Positions 1 through 1,050 of a DNA stretch of 64,000 nt are shown here, in pieces. The stretch spans positions 193,115 through 257,114 of the forward strand of contig CAXHMA010000001.1 in the NCBI GenBank assembly GCA_964017825.1, in the 5' to 3' direction. Under the pieces are notes generated by a model. The model did not search any database. It worked only from the letters and a program-made list of their open reading frames with translations, and was not told where the DNA came from. Source of the stretch: an uncultured Alphaproteobacteria bacterium. Its GTDB lineage: Bacteria > Pseudomonadota > Alphaproteobacteria > RF32 > CAG-239. Each line of letters starts with the position of its first letter. Position 1 is the stretch's first letter. A program made the translations under genes and the position numbers.

Positions 1-444
1 AGTCACCTTCGTTAGGCTTTTTTGACTCTTCCGGCCTTTAAACCGGAGTTCTGGACATACGCCGGAAGCTCCCCGACCCGAGATGTAATACAAATCGGAT
101 TCCCGACACGGCAAAGATTGCTGCTTCCGGGAAGTAGCCCTAACGAAGGAAGGTGTTGAATACCCGCGCCACCTCTGGCGCTAACCAAAATCGGAATATT
201 CCAAAATTGCCCTGCTGATAGTATATAATACATAAGTATTAAAAACAAGTAAAAAACGATGAAAAAATAAAAGGCGGCCGGAGTTGAACACTGCTAGAGA
301 ACAGTTCGGCATATTCAATATATTTTGCCGACATCCGACCAAAGATGGTTTATCGCATATCAATACAAAAAACAAGCAAAATCAGCAGAACAAAAGCAAA
401 ACATACCCTTGACTTTATATAACAAAAGTTCTATAAAAGAAAAG

Positions 445-700
445 TCCGGCGACCCGAATCGCAGGACTTTGTTTAACAAGAAAGGGTTAAACCCAACTTT
501 AACTCATTCTGTGTTAAAGATAACCTATTTTTTTTCAAAAGTCAAGAATTAAAATAGGCTGTGGGTTTCCCCTTTCGCAATACGAAAGGAAAAAATAATG
601 ATAATAAAAATTATTATTGTCATACGGAAACTCCGGATTTTCCTGTCTGTTAAAAAATAGCAGGGAAAGGAAGCGGGGCAGCAATGCTCCGCTTTTTATT
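445..700 (+). ncRNA. Candidate sRNA (repeat unit 1): sigma70-like promoter TTGACT(409-414)-N17-TATAAA(432-437), several internal hairpins, intrinsic terminator 671-699
   Basis: Near-consensus -35/-10 with 17-nt spacing. GC hairpin (gcgggg/ctccgc) plus T5 at the unit end. No conserved ORF. Confidence 0.3.
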
Positions 701-793
701 GCCTCATCCCGCCATACCTGTTACAACAGCCTGACAGAACAAAAGTAAAACATATCCTTGACTTTATATAACAAAAGTTTTATAAAAGAAAAG

Positions 794-1050
794 TCCGGCG
801 AGGCGAATCGCTGGACTTTATTTAACAAGAAAGGGTTAAACCCACCTTTAACTCATTTCTGTGTTAAAGATAACCTATTTTTCTTGAAATGTCAAGAATA
901 AAATAGGCTGTGGGTTTCCCCTTTCGCAATACGAAAGGAAAAAATAATGATAATAAAAATTATTATTGTCATTCGGAAACTCCGGATTTTCCTGTCTATC
1001 AAAAAATAGCAGGGAAAAGAAGCGGGGCAGCAATGCGCCGCTTTTTATAT
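794..1050 (+). ncRNA. Candidate sRNA (repeat unit 2): promoter TTGACT(758-763)-N17-TATAAA(781-786), terminator ~1020-1048
   Basis: Same architecture as unit 1, conserved in the duplicated copy. Confidence 0.3.

Follow-up and report, generated by a model that had tools for sequence, protein, structure and literature searches.

A tandem pair of candidate type I toxin-antitoxin-like small-peptide cassettes in an uncultured alphaproteobacterium and related cassettes on phage contigs

The genome of an uncultured Alphaproteobacteria bacterium (lineage RF32; CAG-239; assembly GCA_964017825.1) carries a tandem repeat of two similar units, here called A and B, near the start of a 64,000-nt stretch of contig CAXHMA010000001.1 (positions 193,115 to 257,114 of the forward strand; hereafter the window). 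The repeat is real and non-random and consists of two autonomous RNA genes. We are highly confident about the gene architecture of the units, a cassette of a messenger RNA (mRNA) for a small peptide and an antisense RNA. Judged from the sequence, the units are probably moron-type cassettes that resemble toxin-antitoxin (TA) modules of type I, with toxicity and both transcripts as predictions. Both RNAs are expected to be made, and the peptide would be translated and toxic or membrane-active. This interpretation is based on a tiny open reading frame (ORF) for a cationic, hydrophobic peptide, an mRNA that locks itself, a predicted cis-antisense RNA over the 5' end, the residence of related cassettes in phages and the tandem duplication.

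Tandem Repeats Finder reported a single array with a period of 349 nt, 1.9 copies and 94% matches. The alignment of positions 380-730 with 729-1079 by MAFFT also gave 94% column identity, and the identity stops directly past the T-run. Each unit comprises 314 bp and runs from its own promoter to its own terminator. A first-pass annotation of this DNA had described two tandem units with the same period, which agrees with the present result, and had put their identity at about 90%, which is somewhat too low. The TTGACT-N17-TATAAA promoter, the hairpins and the GC hairpin with T5 terminator named there were found in both units (coordinates in Table 1). It had also stated that no plus-strand gene follows, and indeed the next features are a minus-strand terminator, a 63-aa ORF and a tRNA-Leu gene. 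Its proposal to look for dispersed copies was followed for 72 kb of the genome: neither the 64-kb window nor the adjoining 8 kb upstream contains a further copy of the unit. The annotation of the source assembly has no gene called at the units.

Including the two window copies, 23 copies of the cassette were collected, 20 of them on viral contigs of IMG/VR and one on a phage-like metagenome contig. They belong to nine sequence types and all share an ORF, a hairpin around its Shine-Dalgarno (SD) sequence, a terminator and a minus-strand promoter. The first-pass annotation had found no ORF conserved between the two units. This holds for the 75-aa ORFs it considered, but a 20-codon ATG ORF is present at the same position and in the same frame in both. 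Within this ORF the two copies differ by 3 nt, which represent one synonymous change and a two-base change from V to I, and the common peptide reads MIIKIIIVIRKLRIFLS[VI]KK. In both units an SD sequence, GAAAGG, is located 8 nt 5' of the ATG and forms the 3' arm of the hairpin cctttcg-caata-cgaaagg. Across the cassette family the spacing between SD and AUG is 6-8 nt.

The small ORF is kept in all nine types with a length of 20-21 codons. The sole length change inside it is a 3-nt in-frame insertion in one type, and lesions of the last codon occur in two individual copies. The ratio of non-synonymous to synonymous polymorphism (pN/pS) is 0.00-0.53 in all 45 pairwise comparisons, and the variable columns are distributed over codon positions 1, 2 and 3 as 8, 3 and 12. 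The peptides of the nine types are MIIKIIIVIRKLRIFLSVKK, MIIKLIIVIRKIRIYLSVKR, MIIKFIIVIRKLRIFLSIKK, MIIKFIIIIRKIRIFLSVKR, MIIKFIIIIRKIRIFLSIKR, MIKIHIIIIIRKIRIYLSVKR, MRIKIILIIRKIRFFLSIKR, (M)MIRFILVIRKIRIYLSIKR and MRIRIILIIRKIRIFFSIKCR. Their core is IRK(I/L)RI(F/Y)LS(V/I)K(K/R). The peptide is rich in isoleucine, has a net charge of +6, and 13 of its 20 residues are hydrophobic. It has no match in Pfam and NCBIfam at E<=10, and a search of a set of 5.8 billion proteins with the extended ORF of 40 aa revealed no homologue. No other ORF is conserved in frame across the types on either strand; a 30-aa GTG ORF, a 49-63-aa minus-strand ORF and N-terminal extensions of the small ORF were rejected, as their frame is not kept.

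Transcription signals were found on both strands. A sense promoter TTGAC(T/A/C)-N16/17-TATAA(A/G) is present in every homologue that is intact at its 5' end, with unrelated spacer sequences. The consensus promoter scan misses these promoters because it requires a T at the final -10 position. The terminator occurs at the matching place in all nine types, again with unrelated sequences. The near-consensus sigma-70 promoter would drive a strongly folded mRNA of about 255 nt, which would end at its own terminator. On the minus strand, a promoter TTGAC(A/T)-17-TA(T/C)CTT was identified in both window copies and in all homologues, and its spacing is always 17. The identity of its two hexamers (0.93 and 0.98) exceeds that of the spacer (0.76) and the family mean (0.83). 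About 70 nt downstream of this promoter the complement of hairpin P1 is followed by UUUUCUUUU, and in copy A the scan reports a minus-strand terminator match at 458→445. A U-tract after P1 is present in the predicted antisense RNAs of all types. In every type the predicted antisense RNA consists of a 5' hairpin, a single-stranded linker and a terminator hairpin with U-tract, and it matches the first ~70 nt of the mRNA with full complementarity. As far as such signals can tell, this transcript of ~75 nt, which was overlooked in the first-pass annotation, is probably the actual small RNA (sRNA) of each unit.

The plus strand is strongly folded. Its minimum free energy (MFE) is -98.4 kcal/mol for copy A and -105.4 kcal/mol for copy B (z -10.5 and z -11.3, respectively); out of 200 dinucleotide shuffles, not one was as stable. 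The structure is strand-specific, since the minus strand reaches only -78.5 kcal/mol (z -5.8). For conservation of the structure we used an alignment of 17 distinct cassette sequences; types 8 and 9 came to light afterwards and were examined visually. In helix P4, GGKUUUCC of the 5' untranslated region (UTR) is paired with codons 10-13 of the ORF (GGAAAMUCC); it is 100% paired in the 17 sequences, and at its pair 136/214 two types have G-C and five have U-A. The start-codon hairpin and P4 are 98-100% paired. Together with P1, they have 98.6% of cells paired, compared with 33-57% in slid controls, and six pairs with compensatory changes. The covariation score of these three helices is 0.208 versus 0.107 +/- 0.010 in shuffles, and 0 of 500 shuffles reach it. 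The covariation check suggested in the first-pass annotation, carried out here on related cassettes, did reveal compensatory changes in the helices. The 6-bp pairing of the anti-SD CCUUUC with GAAAGG is invariant (17/17 sequences) and a seventh pair is GC, AU or GU, while the interior of this hairpin ranges from a 3-nt loop up to an insert of 18 nt that contains a mini-stem capped by GNRA. The hairpins P2, P3 and P5 occur in every type, but with differing registers, so that their support comes only from the folds of the individual sequences. In the modelled structures the ribosome binding site (RBS) of the mRNA appears to be hidden.

The nucleotide identity among the types is about 73-81%. A peptide-level DNA pattern identified 12 IMG/VR contigs, 12 of 12 being true homologues, and later patterns added eight; in one of these later searches 12 of the 27 matches were chance matches. 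The metagenome homologue (L022) was obtained by a search with a structure and start-codon pattern and shows 75% identity over 250 nt; the other four of the five metagenome pattern matches were due to chance. Members were found by the peptide-level and P2-motif patterns, and one RNA-motif pattern recovered just one member that was already known. No blastn match to the cassette was obtained in GenBank phages and PLSDB plasmids.

Each phage contig carries one cassette in a gap of a few hundred nt. At least six different insertion sites were observed, among them positions past tail sheath/tube-like genes, between tail-completion/neck and head genes, past tape-measure/tail-fibre-like genes, 5' of a head-tail adaptor gene and 5' of an endolysin gene. 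In L022 the cassette is located between phage tail-type ORFs according to ORF reading, and the equivalent context in L027 agrees with this. Relative to the neighbouring genes, the cassette has the opposite orientation in five types and the same orientation in three contexts (L026, L054 and L055), and most phage copies face the end of a gene on the opposite strand. The rule that the cassette is always antisense to phage genes is ruled out by the three contexts mentioned. The window and the phage contigs are homologous only within the cassette (window positions 408-665 and 757-1015), and no phage genes were found in the window. The cassette has its own promoter and terminator and lies between phage genes at variable positions, as is typical of a moron. 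Most likely it behaves as a phage moron which also landed and was tandemly duplicated in an alphaproteobacterial chromosome.

Two further features of the phage loci were observed. The type 9 cassette (L055, 2180-3312) is located ~300 nt upstream of the endolysin gene on the same strand and is the only copy found beside a lysis gene. In L029 (~9190-9225), L036, L032, L039/L040 and L022 (~700-735) a GC hairpin with a T7 run is found just upstream of the -35 hexamer of the cassette. Read on the strand of the phage genes, it separates the cassette from the start codon of the phage gene that follows and appears to be a terminator immediately before a structural gene. The window copies do not have it.

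The long plus-strand RNA of each unit is most likely an mRNA, as indicated by the coding-type substitutions in the ORF, the sequestered SD, the internal antisense promoter and terminator and the relatives in phage gene clusters. The ORF falls into the range of small hydrophobic or membrane-type ORFs (<~60 aa) of type I toxins, though its hydrophobic run is short. Location on a mobile element and occurrence as tandem copies, which are also known from type I modules, apply to the phage contigs and the window pair, respectively. Promoter and terminator predict a complementary RNA of ~75 nt encoded at the locus itself in every homologue.

A possible regulatory switch is suggested by an alternative fold. 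RNAalifold predicts a long-range helix in which the anti-SD CCCCUUUC pairs with the 5' GAAAGGG(G) box (480-486 in copy A); this helix is 98.3% paired. The alternative fold is 97.1% paired and shows 10 compensatory pairs. With constrained folding, the folds with the anti-SD paired to the SD and to the 5' box differ by 0.3-4.6 kcal/mol in all members, and the unconstrained MFE structure is either of the two, varying even between close relatives. When the 5' 72-78 nt were blocked, the predicted accessibility of the SD changed from 0.04-0.48 to <=0.01 in types 2, 3, 6 and 7. According to the proposed mechanism, translation would be held off as long as CCUUUC binds the SD and the AUG is within its own hairpin, both of them inside the three-way junction closed by P4. 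The 5' GAAAGGG box would act as an SD mimic and take the anti-SD in the near-isoenergetic fold, by which the SD would be freed. The antisense RNA covers the 5' box and therefore should return the mRNA to the closed fold. The duplex of sense and antisense RNA may also cause cleavage of the mRNA.

Table 1. Features of the two cassette copies (positions refer to the window; minus-strand elements are given in their direction of reading)
Feature	Position	Strand	Description and basis
Tandem array, two cassette copies	386-1048	+	copy A 386-734, copy B 735-1048; Tandem Repeats Finder and pairwise alignment
Unit A sense promoter	409-437	+	-35 TTGACT 409-414, 17-nt spacer, -10 TATAAA 432-437; direct reading
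Unit A predicted antisense RNA	436-510 (approximate ends)	-	~75 nt; begins 7 nt past the -10, stops in the U-tract that follows P1
Unit A hairpin P1	441-470	both	5' hairpin of the mRNA; predicted antisense terminator; 8 pairs, 4 with compensatory changes
Unit A 5' GAAAGGG box (SD mimic)	480-486	+	complementary to the anti-SD; RNAalifold columns 48-54 x 141-147
Unit A antisense promoter	545→517	-	-35 TTGACT (545→540), 17-nt spacer, -10 TATCTT (522→517); promoter scan
Unit A hairpin P3	524-558	+	antisense -35 in its 3' arm; in all types, with differing sequences
Unit A three-way junction	563-634	+	closing helix P4, GGGUUUCC (563-570) x GGAAACUCC (626-634); MFE folds
Unit A SD hairpin (inside junction)	571-589	+	anti-SD CCUUUC 571-576, SD GAAAGG 584-589
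Unit A start-codon hairpin (inside junction)	598-623	+	MFE folds
Unit A small ORF	598-660	+	20 codons, MIIKIIIVIRKLRIFLSVKK; ATG 598, TAG 658-660
Unit A hairpin P5	639-668	+	spans ORF end and stop codon; in every type, pairing register varies
Unit A intrinsic terminator	669-699	+	GC stem and UUUUU; folds
Unit B sense promoter	758-786	+	TTGACT 758-763, 17-nt spacer, TATAAA 781-786; direct reading
Unit B predicted antisense RNA	785-860 (approximate ends)	-	hairpin P1 (790-819) as terminator
Unit B antisense promoter	895→867	-	TTGACA (895→890), 17-nt spacer, TATCTT (872→867); scan, 10/12 matches
Unit B SD hairpin	920-938	+	anti-SD 920-925, SD 933-938
Unit B small ORF	947-1009	+	20 codons, MIIKIIIVIRKLRIFLSIKK
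Unit B intrinsic terminator	1018-1048	+	alignment and fold

Several observations weigh against a type I TA-like function. The uninterrupted hydrophobic run of the peptide comprises ~8-9 residues, which is below a normal membrane span, and the peptide fits no known toxin family. The hairpins that overlap the ORF could explain part of its conservation. Concerning the antisense RNA, the -10 hexamer is weak (TATCTT; TACCTT in type 4), and the conservation of the promoter hexamers may partly reflect the structure of the mRNA, because they overlap conserved helices (element d and P3). P1 together with the U-rich run could also end the sense transcript early. There is almost no variation in the helix that joins the 5' box to the anti-SD, and both compensatory pairs of this helix come from a single sequence (L025). 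With or without the block of the 5' end, the unpaired probability of the SD is 0.00-0.01 in the window copies and 0.45-0.50 in type 4. The switch is put forward here as a hypothesis, because the block changes nothing in the window copies, which are already closed, or in type 4.

The main rival to the TA-like interpretation is a moron-encoded peptide without toxicity, which might serve superinfection exclusion, membrane modulation or the timing of lysis and whose level would be tuned by the antisense RNA. Such an accessory peptide would be compatible with the short hydrophobic run and the high charge. A classic transmembrane toxin would be longer and less charged than this peptide. Both explanations can draw equally on the evidence from ORF, SD hairpin and antisense promoter, and the cassettes are located in late and lysis regions of phages, in one case directly 5' of the endolysin gene. 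However, heavy translational lock-down in combination with a cis-antisense RNA and duplication in tandem characterises toxic small ORFs, and the copies in the window stand alone in a chromosome, where there is no phage for them to serve. We consider a non-toxic peptide rather unlikely. Less likely still are two paralogous, trans-acting non-coding sRNAs, possibly with a dual function, in which the ORF would be incidental to an AU-rich hairpin. This is close to the first-pass annotation, which had proposed a tandem pair of sRNA genes comparable to AbcR. The autonomous promoter-to-terminator units were confirmed here, but purely non-coding sRNAs are hard to square with the ORF, the hidden SD and the antisense promoter. 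A very strong, strand-specific structure with covarying helices, an own promoter and an own terminator would suit an sRNA, and tandem sRNA pairs such as AbcR1/2 are known in Alphaproteobacteria. Nevertheless, length, frame, start, stop and SD spacing of the ORF are kept in nine types, the indel is in frame and the substitutions are mainly synonymous or conservative. Moreover, the best-conserved motifs that could be unpaired are the SD, the anti-SD and the SD mimic and not a seed region, the cassettes occur in phage genomes, and no match was obtained in Rfam, including its alphaproteobacterial sRNA families.

A leader-peptide attenuator, in which the progress of the ribosome on the Ile/Arg-rich ORF would control read-through at P5 and the terminator, appears very unlikely. 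The stop codon does lie within P5, ~10 nt from the terminator stem, mutually exclusive alternative helices exist, and the Ile-rich ORF contains conserved ATA (Ile) and CGG/CGA (Arg) codons and an R-K-x-R motif. Against this, no gene on the same strand follows in the window or in most phage copies, where read-through would run antisense to structural genes; unit A would simply read into unit B, and the C-terminal half of the peptide is conserved as amino acids beyond codon type. We give the least credit to a non-genic repeat or cis element with fortuitous promoter and ORF features, for instance a sequence like a miniature inverted-repeat transposable element (MITE) or a repetitive extragenic palindrome (REP), a phage transcription insulator or a packaging signal. 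Many different sites in phage genomes and stacked hairpins, several of which are terminator-like in both directions, would be expected from such an element. But there is one copy per phage contig, the window pair is alone in 72 kb of this genome, and lack of expression would hardly account for two promoters of fixed spacing with variable spacer sequences together with an ORF that bears a coding signature. No terminal inverted repeats or target duplications were noticed on reading the flanks, which was no formal test.

For the assignment to known RNA families, Rfam was searched with the gathering threshold and permissively with E<=10; the search covered the window, the contig upstream of it and five homologous loci. 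Only tRNAs and 6S RNA were detected, and matches to the units were far below threshold. Hence cmscan gave no family for the units either, in agreement with the first-pass annotation, which had not been able to assign one. A function as a sponge for CsrA, to which the many GGA motifs could point, was rejected, as most GGA are located in stems and the units gave no match to a Csr/Rsm model. Since membership in known toxin or antitoxin families fails in Pfam, NCBIfam, Rfam and the set of 5.8 billion proteins, the cassettes would represent a new family if the type I TA-like interpretation is right.

The chromosomal surroundings of the repeat show further features. Between an outer-membrane beta-barrel gene and unit A, there is a gene-free stretch of 735 nt. 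It contains a multibranched structure of ~170 nt (window 1-161 and upstream sequence, L001 8228-8395) with a closing stem of ~20 bp, UUCAACAGUCACCUUCGUUAGG / CCCUAACGAAGGAAGGUGUUGAA. Its MFE is -72.8 kcal/mol, with z values of -4.3 on the plus and -3.8 on the minus strand, and it has no match in Rfam. On the other side, an uncalled ORF of 63 aa (MSDCIDDLQSQIDELKSSSSSRGRKSSSGSGSSS...; 1134-1325, minus strand) converges on unit B. It is preceded by the SD sequence AGAGGAG 8 nt upstream and followed by a strong terminator of 16 bp (1120→1083). Its product would have a short, helical-looking N-terminus and a low-complexity tail rich in Ser, Arg and Gly. The tRNA-Leu(CAA) gene (1539-1621, minus strand) is located directly upstream of a gene with TPR and methyltransferase parts (1767-3299, plus strand). 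This pair is present in 16 related metagenome-assembled genomes (MAGs), and all relatives of the TPR-methyltransferase gene are found in MAGs of uncultured Alphaproteobacteria or 'Acetobacter sp.'. In these 16 loci, no cassette unit was detected by blastn and nhmmer. The idea of a defined island at the tRNA side was dropped, because beyond this pair the gene order is not conserved in the 16 loci. Exact-protein look-ups for two neighbouring proteins gave matches only in the MAG to which the window belongs, recorded there as GCA_965648045.1. Farther away in the window, 6S RNA was identified at 45343-45500 on the plus strand (RF00013, 58.6 bits, over the gathering score). Two direct repeats of 97 nt (46816-46912 and 47490-47586) are 76% identical, lie 674 nt apart and both end with AAAGAGGCTT(G/C)ATTTGACCGGATCCTC. 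Two neighbouring genes may have these repeats as their paralogous 5' regions.

According to a recent paper, the known occurrence of type I TA modules is so far limited to Proteobacteria, Firmicutes and Tenericutes (PMC12390103), and our literature search found no type I system described for Alphaproteobacteria or their gut phages. The detection of such modules is difficult, as the peptides are tiny, lack annotation and show no relationship from one lineage to the next. It is conceivable, but in our estimate doubtful, that the cassettes represent an undescribed, phage-carried family of riboregulated peptide genes, apparently the first type I TA-like system of Alphaproteobacteria and gut phages, in which the antisense RNA sequesters the SD mimic, leaves the RBS uncovered and brings about the closed fold, and in which late-operon transcription ties the peptide to lysogeny and lysis. 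If this is true, late transcription itself would yield antitoxin-sense RNA, since the cassette is antisense within late operons in most phage copies. The family comes with a defined peptide of 20 aa, with a predicted antisense partner and with compact conserved RNA elements (SD, anti-SD and SD mimic), and thus lends itself to direct tests. As a shared accessory cassette, it links uncultured gut Alphaproteobacteria with uncultured phages. For annotation, it illustrates that a tandem repeat which looks like sRNA genes can conceal a coding gene missed by gene callers.

With regard to known type I systems, no sequence or profile similarity was found to the toxin families Hok, Ldr, Fst, TisB, Ibs, ShoB, TxpA/BsrG, AapA and others. 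In its architecture, the cassette resembles hok/sok, ldr/rdl and the aapA/isoA modules of Helicobacter. These also have a small ORF in a long folded mRNA with occluded SD, an internal promoter on the opposite strand for a short cis-antisense RNA over the 5' region (predicted in our case) and alternative long-range pairings that gate translation, and they occur on mobile elements and in multiple or tandem copies. Hok has ~50 aa, Ldr 35 aa and AapA1 30 aa. The cassette differs from them by the lack of sequence similarity, by its peptide of 20 aa with a charge of +6 and a short hydrophobic run, and by its host lineage, gut Alphaproteobacteria and their phages. The proposed competition of SD mimic, anti-SD and SD is particular to the cassette family.

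Toxins of the Ibs, ShoB and ZorO type comprise 18-29 aa. The enterobacterial pairs Ibs/Sib, ShoB/OhsC and ZorO/OrzO are similar to the cassette in having very short toxins, tandem loci and sRNA antitoxins that act on the mRNA (zorO-orzO: PMC3919570), toxin and antitoxin of the cassette being predicted. However, Sib overlaps the entire ibs ORF, whereas the predicted overlap in the cassette is restricted to the 5' UTR, and OhsC and OrzO come from divergent genes and show only partial complementarity. Peptides of the Ibs type are nearly all hydrophobic, in contrast to the strongly cationic cassette peptide. Outside the TA modules, AbcR1 and AbcR2 of Rhizobiales are likewise an adjacent pair of similar, independently transcribed RNAs in alphaproteobacteria, transcription of the cassette being predicted. 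The AbcR RNAs have about half the length of the ~255-nt units. The cassette has no sRNA match in Rfam and, unlike AbcR, a conserved peptide, a predicted antisense partner and relatives in phages.

Both prophage-borne and tandemly duplicated type I TA modules have been described (PMC7699646, PMC5848175, PMC3919570, PMC8621323). Examples of cassettes with own promoter and terminator on temperate phages are those of phiCD630-1 in C. difficile, bsrG/SR4 and yonT/SR6 of SPbeta in B. subtilis and hokW/sokW of Sp5 in E. coli, to which the cassette described here is similar. For such prophage modules, roles in prophage maintenance or an effect on phage release were proposed (PMC7699646, PMC5848175, PMC8621323). 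They belong to Firmicutes or Enterobacteria and the cited toxins have 50-60 aa, whereas the cassette with its shorter peptide is inserted within structural and lysis gene clusters at six or more different positions.

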